Of a stretch of DNA of 64,000 nt, positions 28,697-35,036 are shown piece after piece; the first letter of the stretch is position 1, and the number at the start of each line of letters is the position of its first letter. Under the pieces are notes generated by a model. It ran no database searches and was not told the DNA's origin. It worked only from the letters and a program-made list of their open reading frames with translations. Position numbers and translations under genes: made by a program. Origin of the DNA: a virus. The DNA lies in the IMG/VR virus record IMGVR_UViG_3300043464_001711, positions 1 to 64,000 of that record. The stretch is one strand, 5' to 3'.

Positions 28697-29010
28697 TATT
28701 TTGTACCTGTAGAACCAAATCCCCCCTCACCACGTTCAGATTCGTTTATTTCAGCCACTTCAATTAAATCTCCGTAATCAGAACTTATTCTATGGGCGAT
28801 TACACCTTGTGCAATTCTTTCTCCTTTATCCCATGTAAATTCTTCGTTACTTAAATTAACTAAAAGAACTTTTATTTCTCCTCTATACCCACAATTATGT
28901 ATTAGGTGGTTATTACAAAAAAAATTACTATTATTTTTTACAGTAATATCATAAGTATCGACTTCACCAATATTTTCAATCCTTTTAATTTTAGTTAGTT
29001 TCATTTTCAA
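28696..29010 (-). CDS. dut: Split intein C-fragment (39 aa) fused to the dUTPase C-terminal extein
   Basis: TYDITV..NFF.N..LIHN|CGYRGEI...GERIAQ...RGEGGFGSTG (intein blocks F/G, then dUTPase motifs 3-5). Confidence 0.95.
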   Translation of the reverse strand: MKMKLTKIKRIENIGEVDTYDITVKNNSNFFCNNHLIHNCGYRGEIKVLLVNLSNEEFTWDKGERIAQGVIAHRISSDYGDLIEVAEINESERGEGGFGSTGTK

Positions 29011-29878
29011 TAAAATTTTTTAGTTCATTAATATTATAAAATATTTTATAGTTATTATATATTTTTTTAGTAAAATTTTCTTTAATCAACACTTCTTCAC
29101 TAACCCAACCCTTCATTTCAACAATCCATTCCTCACCATTTTTTAATTTTATTAAAAAATCTGGTATGTAATTCTTTTTAACCCCATTTAAAATATAAGG
29201 TATGACTATTTTATGTTTATTAGTCCAACTTTCAACTAAAGATGTTGTATCTAAATAAACCATAGACTCTTCTTCTAGTGATGAGGCATAATAATATTTT
29301 TCACCTAATTTATCAAGATAGTAACCAGTTTTATAGATACTTTTCTCATTATTTAATTTACCGTTTAAAAATAATTCTGTAACTATTTTTGACATCTTTT
29401 CTTTAAACGTATTATTTTTTTCACATCTACCATCGTTTAATATTCTCTTTAAAGAGTTAATAACTTTTTCCCTATACTCAATATTTCCCCATCTTTTTTT
29501 AGAAGACTCTGATATTTTAGTGATTCTTTCTTCACTCTTAACCCATTTCTTAAATTCTTCAGTTTTATGATAGTTAGTAAAGCCACTAAAAATGTTAGGG
29601 TCTTCTTTATGTATTTTTTTAATTTTTTCTGACATTTTTTGTTTAAACTCAGTTTTATTATGTGTAATTTTTCTGATATTAGACATTTTTTGTTTAAACT
29701 CAACCTCAGACCATTTATTTTTTTCTCTTTCAGATATTTTTTTTCTATACTCTTCTGAAATTATTTCAGCCCCAGGGAACATCTCTTGGTATCTTTCTTT
29801 ATTTATTTTATGTGTGTGTTTCAAATGATCTTTTATCGAACATTTTTTTAAGATCCCACATATTTTACATTCCACCAT
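28991..29878 (-). mobile_element. Free-standing homing endonuclease: zinc finger, helical repeats and TnsA-like PD-(D/E)xK domain
   Basis: CKICG...HLKHTH; YASSLE...YIPDF...IVEMKG; located between the split-intein halves. Confidence 0.8.
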
Positions 29879-29916
29879 AATACTCAGTATATATTATATA
29901 AATAGTATAATGGTGA

Positions 29917-30591
29917 TTAAAAGATAATTATCTCATCTTCATGTGTTAAATTAATAGCTAATTTCCACCCATTATTAGTGTAAATTTCTGTATTTTCAGT
30001 AACTTCTAACACACCATTTTCTGTTTCTATTCTTAAAACATTTTGTATACCAGTGTTATGTATTTTACTAATAGTGTCTTTTTCTATTTCAAAAGTTTCT
30101 ATGTTAAAAGAATAAACAATATCGTTAATATTTAATTGATTTATAGATTTATCCCCATCAACAGTTTTAACTTTCATTTCACCACTAAAACAATCAACAG
30201 TTCCAGGTGTATTCAATACTGTTATACCATTTTTATAAGCCAACCCACTTCTAGGTCTGATTTGCATTTCGTAACCATCAGGTAATTCAAAATATAATCC
30301 TGTGCCGACTAATTTTCTTTCTAAAGGTTTTAGAGAACCACTTTCATTGGCTCTTAAATCAAAACCTGAATCACCTTCTTTTGCGTAAACAGGATTTTTA
30401 TTATCAGATTTATTAATATATTTAATTTGTATTTTTTCTTTTTCAATTTGACCTTTTTTCTTAGCATCATATTCTTGAACAGATTCAGCTAATTTGATTG
30501 CCATTAAAATTTCTTGTCTTGTAGTTTCAGGTAACATACCCATTTTAGAAAGTTCCTTTAATTCATCTATTTGTTGTTGAATTTCTCCCAT
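29917..30591 (-). CDS. dut: dUTPase N-terminal extein fused to the split intein N-fragment (91 aa)
   Basis: GDSGFDL, IRPRSGLA, NTPGTVD|CFSGEMKV (block A), then LEVTENTEIYT..GW..A..L...D and a stop. Confidence 0.95.
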   Translation of the reverse strand: MGEIQQQIDELKELSKMGMLPETTRQEILMAIKLAESVQEYDAKKKGQIEKEKIQIKYINKSDNKNPVYAKEGDSGFDLRANESGSLKPLERKLVGTGLYFELPDGYEMQIRPRSGLAYKNGITVLNTPGTVDCFSGEMKVKTVDGDKSINQLNINDIVYSFNIETFEIEKDTISKIHNTGIQNVLRIETENGVLEVTENTEIYTNNGWKLAINLTHEDEIIIF

Positions 30592-31304
30592 TATTTTAAA
30601 TTATTTAATTTTGTAATTATATCAACAAGAGCTTTAACATCTCTTTCACAATATTCTTTGATTTCCTCGTGTTTACCCTCCCAATAATTAGTGGTTACGT
30701 TATCACCTTTAACATCACCATTTTTAGGTGAGTCAATATCTAAAACAGAACAAATCAAATCTAAAGAACCTAAAGACCAATTATTACCAAATTGCCATAC
30801 TTCTTTAGTATCTACAACCCTTAAGTCCCAAGGTTTAGTTTCATGTGTAGGAAACAATTTAGGTGGTTTCATTCCGTTAATAAAATATCTTTTACCTAAA
30901 AAAGGGATGTCAAATATTTTAATACTTTGACCACATAAATCAAAACCAAGTGGTTCAATTTTATCAAAGATTTTTCTAGTTTCAGTTAAGATATGTATTT
31001 CATCTTCACCATAAAAAGATTCAAATTTAATCTCACCCATTTTTGTTACAAATGCCATAGAAACACAAGCCACTTTACCAAACTCAGGAAAGAATGCTGC
31101 GGTTTGTCTATAAACTTCTTGGTGCATTTCACCAATAGTCATTAATTCAGAATCAATTCTAGATTCGTCAGTAATCTTCTTACGAAAAGAATCGTAATAA
31201 GACTCCCACATCTTTAACTTATCTTCAGGCATGTCATATAAGTCTTCATATTGACTTACACTTTCAATATCAAAAAATAATAATTTATCTATATTAAACT
31301 TCAT
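30591..31304 (-). CDS. PolB-related standalone 3'-5' exonuclease (DEDDy)
   Basis: FFDIES, FDIPFL, EYCERDV. Confidence 0.85.
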   Translation of the reverse strand: MKFNIDKLLFFDIESVSQYEDLYDMPEDKLKMWESYYDSFRKKITDESRIDSELMTIGEMHQEVYRQTAAFFPEFGKVACVSMAFVTKMGEIKFESFYGEDEIHILTETRKIFDKIEPLGFDLCGQSIKIFDIPFLGKRYFINGMKPPKLFPTHETKPWDLRVVDTKEVWQFGNNWSLGSLDLICSVLDIDSPKNGDVKGDNVTTNYWEGKHEEIKEYCERDVKALVDIITKLNNLK

Positions 31305-32639
31305 TAGTATGTTCTATTAATTGTTCAACTTCTTTTTGTTTATCATTTAAAATAGTCTTATAGAAAGACGCTCTAGTGTGTGTGACAGTATCTATATGAT
31401 ATTTGTCTTTAACAGTTTCATATAGATTATGTGACAATAACTCAACAAGAGTAGGATTTTCTTTTAACTTTTTCAAGGCTTTATACCAGTCCTTATGATT
31501 TTTAGAAGTGTCAATTAAAATAGCATTACCCTTTTCATTGATATTACCACCGTACTCAAATAAGTTTACACAATCAATCTGGTACGGTCCATAATTTTGT
31601 GCTATTAAAGCTTTTTTATGGAAACCCGACTCAATAACTTTTAACTGAGATTTTACTTTATTAAACATGTGTTCTTTAAGTGGTGACATCGATACATCAA
31701 ATAGATTGTAATTTGATGCATAAGTAGTAATAGGTTTAGTCCAAACCCTACGATATAATTCATTTAAATTATTATAACGTTTATCACTACTTTCATCATA
31801 TTTTTTTAATTGTTTTTGATAATCTTCTGGTAGTAAATTATATTCTTTAGTAAACATTTCTTCATATCTAGCCCATATACTTTCTTGTGGTTCTATTTTT
31901 CTTGTTCTTTGTTGACCAGTATTTCTATCTATTTCAGTTACATTACCTCTAGTATCAAAACCACACAACACCATTTGTGTGTCATTTTTATTTTCACCTA
32001 AAAATCTACTAACACTATCACCAATAATTTTTAAATCATGAAAATGTGAAGAACCGCCTAACCAACCAAAACGTAAAGTTTTTTCTGTATTTTCTGTGTT
32101 AGGTGTAAATTGTTTTTCGGAAGGGTCAATTGCGTTTGGTAAAACAATTACATTTTTATTTAAAACACTTATTTCTTTAGCGAAAATGGGTGTAGTAGTT
32201 GTTACGTAATTAACTCTTTTAATATTTTCTTTAATTTTTTGTGGTAAATTATCATTAATAATCATCTGATGTGCCGGATGTTCTTTCCCAGGTTCCCAAT
32301 AATCATCTAAATCCATTATTGTTATAATACCCATCGAATGGATTTTATCTAAAATAGAAAACATATCTTCCATATAAACTTGTCTTAACATACCGTCTTT
32401 TATCATGGGTAATGTTCTATGGAAATGGACGATATCAAATTTTTTCAAAAAACTATCATCGTAACTAAAATTATCTGTACCAGCCGTAATAATTTCGATA
32501 TAAAAATCATCATTATATAACTCCTGTAATTTCATGTGGGGTTCCACTGAACGAAATTTACTTAACTTACCCCCGTTCTATCTGAAGGAAAAACTAAAAC
32601 GTTAATCTTCTGAACGGGGGCATTTATACTTTTTTTCAT
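31294..32639 (-). CDS. GT-B glycosyltransferase; its apparent N-terminus (32639-32565) is out of frame because of a 5-nt duplication
   Basis: MKKSINAPVQKINVLVFPSDRTGVS*, then shifted frame KFRSVEPH...; MDLDDYW, GWLGGSSH, KSQLKVIE motifs. Confidence 0.8.
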
Positions 32640-32988
32640 ATTTATTTATAATTTTATAAATTATTTTATCATCAGAATTGTAATCTGATTCCCATATTAT
32701 TTCTAAATTATAATTATTTTTTTTTGCTAAGTAAACTTTATTATTATCGTATTTCCATATTTGATTAGCCGTCTTTTTTTTAACTTTATTAAAAAAATTT
32801 TTATCGTAAATTTTTGGGTTACAGTGGAAAAAATCACCGTTAAATTCTATTAAAAGATTATACTTTGGAATTAAAATGTCATAATTTTTTTCTTCTACTT
32901 GGGACCATCTTTCAAATTTTATATTTAAAGAATTAAGTATTACCCATATTTCTTCTTCATATTTAGAGTGTTTTAACCCAGTTAACAT
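32602..32988 (-). mobile_element. Vsr/DUF559-like (EDxHD-type) homing endonuclease, probably 5'-truncated
   Basis: YDIL...LLIEFNGDFFH...D..K...A...Y...IIWESD. Confidence 0.75.
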
Positions 32989-33090
32989 TTTCCCTAATTT
33001 ATGATTTTCTTTTATTTTATCAATAACATTATTTTTATTTATAATACCTTTTTATTAGAAACATCTTTAATATCACAAGGAAAAGTATAG

Positions 33091-33121
33091 TAAATAAAAA
33101 ACCCGACTTAATGTCGGGTTT
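33091..33121 (-). terminator. Terminator, duplicated at 35067..35097
   Basis: AAACCCGAC-TTAAT-GTCGGGTTT. Confidence 0.85.
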
Positions 33122-33138
33122 ATTTTTTTAGTAAAAAA

Positions 33139-33372
33139 TCAATCAATAGCCAACTCAAACTTACGTGTATAAGGATTATATACTTGTTGACTAATAATTA
33201 AACAATCTTCTTCTTGTTTAAGTGTTGTGTGATTTTTAGTTACTAGTTCACTTTTACCTTCAATGAAAAACGTTTCTGTCACATCATCCATTTGGATTAC
33301 ATTTTTTGATCCTTTAACAAAATGTCCTTCTGTGGAAGAAGGTGCTACATTTATTTTAACTTTTGTCTCCAT
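33139..33372 (-). CDS. Small beta-rich hypothetical protein, likely partner of the upstream gene
   Basis: STEGH...NHTTL...QQVYNP. Confidence 0.65.
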   Translation of the reverse strand: METKVKINVAPSSTEGHFVKGSKNVIQMDDVTETFFIEGKSELVTKNHTTLKQEEDCLIISQQVYNPYTRKFELAID

Positions 33373-33425
33373 ATTTATTTTTTATTTTAAATTTACTAAA
33401 TTTTATTTAATTAAAAAAGATTTTT

Positions 33426-34976
33426 TTAATACTCATATCTCATTTTTTTGAAATATTCATCCCCTGAAATAGTCACAGTATCTTGTATATCATTTTTAGT
33501 TAATTTATTATTTTTTAACATATAAGTACCTTCATCATCAAAAACAGTACTATATCTTTCACCTTGTCTCTGAATGTATTTTATATGGTTTTTTAATTTT
33601 TTTGGTATTCTATACAAACTCGCAATCGCGTCTTTAGCGTTTGTATATTTAGGTTCAACACCTAAAAAAAACATTCTATCCGTTGATGGACAATAACATC
33701 TAACAAAAGATATGTAAGTCGCATTTACAATGTCTCGTTCAAGAACTCCCATAAATAAAGTGTAAACACCTACATTGTTACTATTTGTTGTTCCTATCAT
33801 AAATTTATCTTCTTTTTTATCCACATAGGTGTCAACTTCCTTTAAAACTTTTGTGAAAAAATCATACAAATATGTATCACCATGTAAATTTCTCATTATT
33901 GATATTAATAAAGATTTATCTTCTTCATTTTTAATATCCATGAATTCTTCAAATGTTAATGTTTTTTCTTTAATCTTTTTAATTTTTTTAAGTAATTCTA
34001 AATTCACATGTCTATTTTCTATGTAGTCACAAATAAATTTTGTTTCTTCAAATGAGTACCCCCATTCTACCGCAGGACCATGCATATTATGTAAATTATT
34101 ATTTGAATCTAGATGTATTTTTTTAGGATATTTAGAAACAATACAGAAAAGTTCTGAAACTATTGTTGAATAGATATTAGAATCAGTGTATAATTCATCC
34201 CATAAATCTATTTTTTGATCTATTCCTGTTTTAACATTTAATTCATCTTTAATAAATTTATAAATAGAAAGTCTAGAATTAGATTCTAAATTTGAGGTAT
34301 ACAAATATTGAAGTTGGTCACTATATTTTTCAGATTTATTTTTTAAATCGTAAATTACTTGGTTTTCTATTTTACGTAATATATTAGAGGTTATATTATT
34401 TTCTAGACCATTTAATAAACTACCATATAATTTTGTTGTTAAACTTTTTAATAATTTCCTATTGTAAACAGCCATGTCATTTTCAAAATGACTATTTAAT
34501 TTAGAAAAAAAGAAAGAACTTAATTTATTATATAACATTTCATTAATTAGTTCAGGATAAATAACACCATCTAATTTTTCATGCATTTTAAATTTTAACT
34601 GTGAGATTATTTTAGACTTTAAAGATATATCATAATCTGAAGTTAAACCATCAACATATTCTATTTCTTCATGACCCCACTCATATTGTTCCATATTGTT
34701 TATCATACAATAATTAAAATATAGAATGGGTAAAAAATATTTTTTATTTTTAATTATAAAATTGTACAATAATTGTGATTCATAAGGGTTTTCACAAACT
34801 AATACTATAGGTTTTTTAAAACCAGCGGATTCATAAGTCCAATTAATTAATTTTTCAGCATTTTCTTTACTGAAATTTTTATATCTACTACCGTCTAATG
34901 AATTTCTAACGTATTTATTGACGTAAGATTTGAATTTTGATTGGTTTTCCGATGTTAATTTGATTAAATTTTTCAT
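33426..34976 (-). CDS. DUF6745-like protein
   Basis: LHNMHGPAVEW, VRCYCPSTDRMFFLGV. Confidence 0.55.
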   Translation of the reverse strand: MKNLIKLTSENQSKFKSYVNKYVRNSLDGSRYKNFSKENAEKLINWTYESAGFKKPIVLVCENPYESQLLYNFIIKNKKYFLPILYFNYCMINNMEQYEWGHEEIEYVDGLTSDYDISLKSKIISQLKFKMHEKLDGVIYPELINEMLYNKLSSFFFSKLNSHFENDMAVYNRKLLKSLTTKLYGSLLNGLENNITSNILRKIENQVIYDLKNKSEKYSDQLQYLYTSNLESNSRLSIYKFIKDELNVKTGIDQKIDLWDELYTDSNIYSTIVSELFCIVSKYPKKIHLDSNNNLHNMHGPAVEWGYSFEETKFICDYIENRHVNLELLKKIKKIKEKTLTFEEFMDIKNEEDKSLLISIMRNLHGDTYLYDFFTKVLKEVDTYVDKKEDKFMIGTTNSNNVGVYTLFMGVLERDIVNATYISFVRCYCPSTDRMFFLGVEPKYTNAKDAIASLYRIPKKLKNHIKYIQRQGERYSTVFDDEGTYMLKNNKLTKNDIQDTVTISGDEYFKKMRYEY

Positions 34977-35005
34977 TTTAATAAGTTTAATATTTTTAAC
35001 TACAA

Positions 35006-35036
35006 CAAATATAATTAAAAAATGTTATTAAACAAC
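35006..35036 (-). promoter_or_regulatory. Bacteroidota-type promoter
   Basis: Minus strand GTTG-N19-TATATTTG upstream of 34976. Confidence 0.6.

Follow-up and report, generated by a model that had tools for sequence, protein, structure and literature searches.

A putative short translational bypass associated with a homing-endonuclease cassette in a viral glycosyltransferase gene

How can a virus make a complete enzyme from a gene whose reading frame meets a stop after 25 codons and resumes, in another frame, a few nucleotides (nt) later? The question is raised by a glycosyltransferase (GT) gene on the minus strand of the IMG/VR virus record IMGVR_UViG_3300043464_001711, of which we analyzed positions 1 to 64,000 (the window, 64,000 nt). 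The same interruption recurs in homologous genes, always behind a hairpin and often next to a homing-endonuclease gene or its remnant, and the probable explanation, in our view, is a homing-endonuclease cassette that brings with it a short, programmed translational bypass (stop-hop).

A glycosyltransferase gene interrupted by five nucleotides

From the ATG at 32639–32637, the minus strand of the window reads MKKSINAPVQKINVLVFPSDRTGVS and then TAA (32564–32562). The local DNA is GTA AGT TA AGT AAA TTT CGT, formally a tandem TAAGT duplication (G TAAGT TAAGT AAA), and its five surplus bases (TAAGT, 32564–32560) sit between the frame of ATG 32639 and that of an open reading frame (ORF) of 417 amino acids (aa), which runs on the same strand from GTG 32547 to the stop at 31294–31296 and whose frame is open upstream to 32577. 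Deletion of TAAGT in silico yields VLVFPSDRTGVSKFRSVEPH, identical to the uninterrupted homologs (438–439 aa), which read ...SDRTGVSKFRSVEPH... across the break site; this is the junction predicted in a first-pass annotation made from the sequence alone. The other sequence statements of that annotation (the frame ending in TAA, the TAAGT surplus, the junction restored by removing 5 nt, the matched AGT take-off and landing codons and the stop right after take-off) are likewise borne out by the window DNA. A protein search retrieved thousands of homologs from aquatic metagenomes, mostly of 438–439 aa and beginning with MSKINVLVFPSDRTGVSKFRSVEPHMKLQ. Their N-terminus is MSK... and continues through TGVSKFRS, and the natural start at VEPH that had been considered for the homologs is not seen. 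The features of the site in the window are as follows.

32610–32639, minus strand: start codon of the GT and 10-codon N-terminal extension (MKKSINAPVQ), which replaces the native MS start; uninterrupted relatives start with MSKINVLVF
32612–32622, minus strand: 5′ arm of the stem (UGCCCCCGUUC), within the extension and the 3′ end of the nuclease gene
32568–32578, minus strand: 3′ arm of the stem (GAACGGGGGUA), formed by the codons for Arg-Thr-Gly-Val in the invariant motif SDRTGV, with its last base one position before the take-off codon
32565–32567, minus strand: take-off codon AGT, Ser17 of the intact enzyme, a residue for which uninterrupted clade members use TCN
32560–32564, minus strand: 5-nt coding gap TAAGT, in which the stop TAA (32564–32562) overlaps the landing codon AGT (32562–32560)
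31294–32559, minus strand: remainder of the GT coding region, beginning with the resume codon AAA (32559–32557; KFRSVEPH...) and ending with the stop at 31294–31296

The frame after the gap is intact over 421 codons, and a comparable N-terminal extension of about 10 aa is found in all interrupted copies of the gene. When both strands of the whole window were scanned for the same design (a strong hairpin ending at a codon, a stop, a gap of 5–13 nt, the same codon again, and frames open on both sides), this site was the only one returned. Gene callers start the window GT at ATG 32535, giving a shortened ORF of 413 aa (P0122). Database records place this call on 4 contigs (listed sources: NCBI, JGI/IMG, Logan and ENA), and P0001, which differs from it by one residue, comes from a different contig. 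Over 413 residues, the window GT shows 100% identity to P0121, a protein without the interruption. A megablast comparison with deposited phages gave no match and tblastn retrieved only distant GTs (e.g., a phi92-like one, at 24% identity), and from this we conclude that there is no cultured relative. No tRNA genes were found in the window.

Some further database entries touch on the start of this gene. In P0125 (458 aa, from the same 90% cluster as the window GT) the frame continues upstream (…QNINYSKINVLVF…) and the position of the native ATG is occupied by Y. Proteins P0077, P0078, P0091, P0094 and P0100 (413–414 aa, starting with MKLQ) begin at the same internal Met as the shortened call of the window and may mark further interrupted copies; relatives of P0077 at loci L075 and L103 are uninterrupted.

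Conservation of the break, the hairpin and the enzyme

Altogether we compared 25 distinct interrupted and 64 distinct uninterrupted GT N-termini, and all 25 interrupted versions are broken at one and the same codon. Besides the window, four copies with this break were among the loci fetched by homology (L040, L041, L134, and L136); in this unbiased set of five, the stop directly follows the take-off codon in 5/5. A search with the pattern L-V-x-P-S-D-R-[ST]-G-V-x followed by TAA or TAG matched 28 viral contigs, and every match was the N-terminus of this GT gene. An earlier pattern demanding a Ser take-off codon had found the contig of L040 only among viral contigs, and none among metagenome contigs. 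The gaps are 5, 6, 8, 11 or 12 nt long and comprise 13 distinct sequences (TAAGT; TAGGT; TAAGGC; TAAGGT; TAAGGA; TAAATGGT, TAATTGGT, TAAATGGA; TAACTAAAGGT, TAAATCAAGGT, TAACCAAAGGT; TAACCAACAGGT, TAACAAAACGGT). Their interior is variable and A/C-rich, with a stop at the 5′ end and a codon resembling the take-off codon at the 3′ end being retained. The conserved x-[FY]-R-S-x-x-P-H resumes in the frame set by the landing codon, and gap lengths that are not a multiple of three still restore the exact conserved sequence. The codon pairs are mostly Gly to Gly (GGT or GGC to GGT, GGC or GGA), and AGT to AGT in the window. The 5-nt design of the window, AGT TA AGT, has its Gly counterpart, GGT TA GGT, in L203, L207, and L208. 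Comparison of L136 with its close uninterrupted relative L147 reveals a clean insertion of 30 nt, which supplies the 5′ arm of the hairpin, plus a gap of 6 nt.

The GC-rich stem that had been placed just before the site is real: in the window it is formed by CCCCCGTTC/GAACGGGGG and is extended by RNAfold to 11 bp (32622–32612 with 32578–32568), with a minimum free energy of -23.7 kcal/mol and z = -4.5, and 0/200 shuffled sequences fold as well. A stem of 13–15 bp (11 bp in the RNAfold structure of the window) that ends one base before the take-off codon is present in 25/25 interrupted versions vs. 0/64 uninterrupted ones. In every interrupted copy its 5′ arm lies within the N-terminal extension and is complementary to the D-R-T-G-V codons, and its terminus is always next to the take-off codon, where the nascent chain is 25–35 aa long. 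Duplex energies ranged from -16 to -26 kcal/mol (mean -22.5) in the 25 interrupted sequences and from -1.5 to -10.3 kcal/mol (mean -5.4) in the 64 uninterrupted ones, without overlap between both sets (U = 0, p = 3e-13).

Synonymous sites in the 3′ arm covary with the 5′ arm. The third base of the Thr codon forms A:T pairs in 4 sequences, G:C in 4, T:A in 6 and C:G in 6, while that of the Gly codon forms C:G in 15, T:A in 4 and G:C in 3; the third bases of the Val and Ser codons show three Watson-Crick types each. In an arm-swap control, a foreign 3′ arm equalled the native one in just 22/352 cases. Covariation was read from per-sequence folds against the 3′ arm, which is kept in register by the coding frame; a consensus built with MAFFT and RNAalifold was dropped, since bulges shift the register and the 5′ arm is misaligned between subfamilies, making the consensus meaningless. 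The extensions share a P-x-x-G-R similarity that coincides with the 5′ arm, and here constraints on the peptide and on the RNA are inseparable. In a separate observation, the uninterrupted GT at L163 (1045–2322, plus strand) has an extension-like N-terminus (MKENIKLNTPLNRKVRVLV) and a 6-bp stem remnant with a duplex energy of -8.2 kcal/mol; this lineage may have lost the gap and now be losing the hairpin.

Apart from the gap, the interrupted genes are intact and, judging from their substitution patterns, under purifying selection. All the interrupted copies that reach the end of the gene (21/21) have intact downstream frames, of 386–422 codons. A tree of 83 GT sequences groups 14 interrupted members, with gaps of 5, 6, 11, and 12 nt, in one well-supported clade, within which synonymous divergence (dS) is 0.6–1.65 and nonsynonymous divergence (dN) is 0.04–0.31. 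Past the gap, the nearest ATG, GTG or TTG in frame is found anywhere from codon 5 to 214 (213 codons in L193), yet the invariant R, S, P, and H shortly behind the gap are conserved, with 4, 5, 3, and 2 synonymous codons in use, respectively. Reinitiation was excluded as a general mechanism because the position of the start is not conserved and these residues are kept synonymously.

The enzyme itself is predicted to be a GT-B glycosyltransferase, closest to the GT4 enzymes MshA, BshA, and PimA. An AlphaFold2 model of the uninterrupted L001 protein (predicted local distance difference test score, pLDDT, of 91.7) has the GT-B fold, with two Rossmann-like domains, and Foldseek matched it to MshA, BshA, PimA, and PglA (E from 1e-11 to 1e-9, probability 1.00). 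A Pfam search with the GT gave no match, and the PHROG search matched phrog_7162 ‘glycosyltransferase’ (4e-38). In the model, strand beta1 spans residues 4–9 and helix alpha1 residues 14–31; the gap, between S17 and K18, would fall in the first turn of alpha1, directly after the core strand beta1, and is surrounded by the invariant residues S11, D12, R13, G15, V16, R20, S21, P24, and H25.

The same gene hosts other insertions. The GTs of L041 (1438–3777, plus strand) and L183 (with a downstream frame of 776 codons) contain an intein with a homing-endonuclease-like middle part in the invariant motif GWLGG-SSH. Because these GTs also host an intein, the gene is a repeated target of selfish elements.

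The nuclease and the mobility of the cassette

Two further features of the window lie upstream of the gap.

32602–32988, minus strand: remnant of a homing-endonuclease gene, 128 aa, limited to the putative catalytic domain (Vsr-like); its final 38 nt are shared, in another frame, with the start of the GT gene
32640–35028, minus strand: whole insertion with respect to uninterrupted relatives, as delimited by tblastx synteny, containing the nuclease remnant and a two-gene module

A Vsr-like nuclease gene overlapping the GT start had been proposed from the sequence; the overlap stands, but the gene is a truncated remnant. It aligns with residues 173–302 of the 309-aa homolog from L040 with 43% identity, lacks the NUMOD3 DNA-binding part that L040 has, and matches homing/HNH endonuclease families in PHROG. 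The 309-aa ORF of L040 lies directly upstream of the GT gene and ends (...DPCRSD) inside the GT extension, out of frame. Intact homologs of the nuclease contain NUMOD3 (PF07460, 25.5 bits, above the cut-off), with a Vsr-like restriction endonuclease domain (PF18741) below the cut-off, and match the DNA-binding domain of I-TevI (1i3j, E = 0.003).

A nuclease gene or its remnant precedes 16 of the 25 interrupted copies vs. none of the 58 uninterrupted ones for which the sequence extended far enough upstream (Fisher 7e-12, although the copies are related). The nuclease is intact in ten of the 16 (305–319 aa), broken in one, frameshifted in two and reduced to the last 45 codons in two, to which the remnant of the window is added. 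One intact family member is the 309-aa ORF at L186 (2182–3102). The first-pass annotation had proposed examining whether the insertion, the stem and the nuclease co-occur in homologs; they do, and this, together with the recurrence of GGT-TA-GGT in L203, supports its suggestion of a minimal bypass cassette tied to the nuclease.

The cassette also appears to be mobile, with at least 7–9 gains or losses on the GT tree. As with the window GT and P0121, there is an uninterrupted sibling of the L040-type GT, namely P0135. In L001 nothing lies between the preceding gene and the ATG of the GT, and in L040 this place is taken by the 309-aa nuclease alone. Within 32989–35028, the window contains a module of two minus-strand ORFs, at 33139–33372 (77 aa) and 33426–34976 (516 aa), which occupies the place of the N-terminal half of the nuclease and is absent from L001 and L040; the 516-aa ORF had no match in Pfam or PHROG. 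The Ser codon is AGT in both the window and L040, a single change away from GGT, the codon of Gly-type cassettes; AGT as landing codon is confined to the window. In this single case, the pattern is consistent with import of the cassette from a Gly-type gene and later adaptation, during which a matched codon pair was selected. We found no sign of a co-conversion tract: the window and L001 are 88% identical throughout, the first 60–200 nt are no more divergent, and there is no foreign tract beyond the cassette.

Two other arrangements were observed. At L037 (2161–2919, plus strand) a nuclease homolog with 36% identity lies upstream of a divergent, non-interrupted GT that starts at about 3001 and has the N-terminus MEKNKIKLLLQPSDNQGVGHFRS, and this could reflect natural resistance of the target or another type of arrangement. 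In the window itself (28991–30591, minus strand), a dUTPase ORF terminates in the N-part of a Hint/intein (PF00692, with weak Hint matches in addition) and is followed by an endonuclease-like ORF.

A proposed hop, its alternatives and known bypass systems

According to the mechanism that we propose, translation would start at ATG 32639 and read 25 codons, until the Ser codon AGU is in the P site and UAA in the A site, causing slow decoding. At this point the 5′ arm of the stem would already be outside the ribosome, with the 3′ arm still unwound in the mRNA exit channel, and re-zipping of the stem could pull the mRNA forward by about the gap lengths observed; pairing of the exiting mRNA as a driver of bypass was discussed for T4 gene 60 by Wills et al. 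The peptidyl-tRNA-Ser would then release AGU and re-pair with the AGU located 5 nt downstream, and decoding would resume at AAA, producing the full enzyme with the conserved TGVSKFRS motif (junction ...DRTGVSKFRSVE...). The cassette, consisting of the nuclease, the N-terminal extension with the 5′ arm, and the gap, most likely arrived by homing. By analogy with MobA, the gap probably spoils the target of the nuclease in the invariant SDRTGV.x[FY]RS motif; in the window, the nuclease would have been truncated after entry of the cassette.

Could the enzyme instead be truncated or split? Translation would then end at TAA, with a GT starting from GTG 32547 or ATG 32535 without beta1, or with the 25-aa peptide associating non-covalently. 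Both starts exist, gene callers do choose the ATG (413-aa P0122), and the nuclease-split enzymes of T4 gene 39/60 and of the MobE-split nrdA are functional as complexes (Manning & Atkins, bioRxiv 10.1101/2022.08.31.505936). However, the first start after the gap moves between codons 5 and 214 among the copies, while the K/x-F-R-S-x-x-P-H that precedes it is kept by synonymous change; beta1 and the first turn of alpha1 are core Rossmann elements, and the conserved landing codon and the covarying stem at the take-off codon are left unexplained, all of which makes this reading unlikely. It is equally unlikely that the window gene is simply dead, whatever other members of the family do, through a recent 5-nt tandem duplication or decay of the cassette. 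The formal TAAGT duplication, the truncated nuclease and the 100% identical uninterrupted allele P0121, which indicates that the event may be recent, would agree with such a loss. Nevertheless, a duplication requires a GTA AGT AAA parent, and uninterrupted clade members write this Ser as TCN; moreover, since the extension, the stem and the nuclease remnant are all present, the window belongs to the cassette family and does not represent a separate lesion. A perfect match is also seen between its take-off and landing codons, the 421-codon frame after the gap is intact, and the same 5-nt design occurs in L203, within a long-lived interrupted clade.

A mixture of recoding events, with readthrough where the gap is of 6 or 12 nt and frameshifting (-1 or +2) where it is of 5, 8 or 11 nt, seems still less probable. 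The run of five G (32575–32571) followed by the stop resembles a shift-prone site, and an extra G or a -1 slip there joins the frames, but the product would be TGGKLSKFRS, in which the invariant motif is altered and lengthened and no longer matches that of the family; readthrough, in turn, would add 2–4 residues to the same motif. The G run stems from the codons for Gly and Val, which are paired with the 5′ arm, and is GGAG or GGGC elsewhere, with compensating changes. A single homologous element would have to rely on two or three mechanisms unrelated to each other, whereas a hop is the single reading that covers all gap lengths. Reassignment of TAA was rejected because gaps of 5, 8, and 11 nt break the frame anyway. 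Small indels are common errors in assemblies. Still, an assembly error is unlikely because P0122 is recorded from 4 contigs and the P0001 variant from another; the gap, in addition, co-occurs with the extension, the stem and the nuclease that mark other interrupted copies, and we regard a sequencing or assembly error as highly improbable.

Several observations weigh against a programmed hop or reduce the force of the evidence for it. In the 26 pattern-derived loci, the stop and the conserved sequence before the gap hold by construction, and the copies are kin, so p-values overstate their independence. Codon matching is imperfect in L040, which pairs AGT with GGC (a G:U at codon position 1), and in three lineages that pair GGT with GGA (a wobble mismatch). 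As to the window, its stem is among the shorter ones (11 bp), its nuclease is truncated, and the uninterrupted sibling P0121 implies that its cassette may be recent; selection on the window copy itself does not follow from that on the family.

The closest parallel to the proposed bypass is T4 gene 60, with a 50-nt bypass within a MobA homing-endonuclease element; cassettes of this type are reported in topoisomerase genes only, and the same source cites a result on protection from MobA cleavage (Manning & Atkins, bioRxiv 10.1101/2022.08.31.505936). Both systems have matched take-off and landing codons, often for Gly, and a stop directly after take-off. In both, the 3′ end of a free-standing nuclease gene overlaps, out of frame, a downstream N-terminal extension that is followed by a host-like stretch and then the gap, and the site is in a highly conserved motif. 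The elements occur sporadically, recent insertions among them, and the nuclease decays or disappears while the gap stays. In contrast to gene 60, the GT gap is of 5–12 nt instead of 50, A/C-rich and devoid of a take-off stem-loop, and it leaves no room for a Shine-Dalgarno (SD)-like element, which in gene 60 is found 6 nt before the landing site. The 5′ stem is conserved and covarying in the GT family but is not conserved between clades of gene 60. The host gene encodes a GT-B enzyme rather than a topoisomerase (II large subunit), and division into two ORFs, with extension tails at the C-terminus, is not seen in the GT gene. Finally, the nuclease has NUMOD3 and a putative Vsr-like domain where MobA is an HNH nuclease, and there is no sequence homology between the elements. 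The GT element would act in the manner of T4 gene 60 without being its homolog, and it lacks defining features of that group.

Another short coding gap in an essential phage gene is that of the terminase of the Streptomyces phage phiHau3, in which inserts of 10 nt are bypassed at a rare UUA codon; there, too, 5′ stem-loop stimulators were proposed, and a junction peptide in E. coli supports bypass over frameshift (Antonov et al., 2023, PMC10732093). In phiHau3, however, the trigger is a rare sense codon tied to the tRNA supply of the host and the proposed role is regulation; there is no homing endonuclease, natural examples are few, and an SD interaction is invoked. In our full-text literature search we found no paper on the interruption of this GT family.

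Mobile inserts in coding sequences with matched take-off and landing codons are also known as byps from the mitochondria of Magnusiomyces capitatus; these are GC-cluster-like elements of 27–55 nt with internal hairpins. Unlike the GT gaps, byps are mitochondrial, longer and internally hairpinned, and have no linked nuclease. Unprogrammed short tRNA hops over stops were reportedly seen in E. coli constructs by Weiss et al. in 1987 (+5 and +6 hops) and O'Connor et al. in 1989. The resemblance is that the peptidyl-tRNA detaches from the codon preceding the stop and pairs again with a matching one a few bases downstream, whatever the frame. Hops in these constructs, though, were low-level, synthetic or fortuitous, and had no dedicated stimulator, whereas the GT site is natural and conserved, has a covarying hairpin and lies in a gene under purifying selection.

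A broader proposal, which we advance only tentatively and with doubt slightly outweighing conviction, is that the hairpin, the stop and the matching codon constitute a self-sufficient, portable hop module, with refolding of the 5′ stem behind the ribosome giving the forward pull. If so, the natural gap lengths (5–12 nt) would be bounded by the length of the 3′ arm in the exit channel, and the family would provide a natural allelic series that isolates the drive by exit pairing from the other signals of gene 60. Such a module would also add to introns and inteins a third route by which homing endonucleases could enter invariant coding sequences harmlessly.

Efficient natural bypassing has so far rested on T4 gene 60 and its topoisomerase homologs, plus the phiHau3 and yeast-mitochondrial cases. 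The GT family has a far simpler anatomy and offers dozens of natural variants in gap length, codon pair and stem sequence, and with the 5′ stem as its sole conserved stimulator, the role of 5′ mRNA refolding becomes directly testable. It would likewise illustrate how, with neither intron nor intein, a homing endonuclease can occupy an invariant motif of an enzyme. For annotation, genes of this kind are called as N-truncated proteins of 413 aa (P0122, P0001), and short stop-plus-gap interruptions behind hairpins may hide among the ‘pseudogenes’ of other phage genes.

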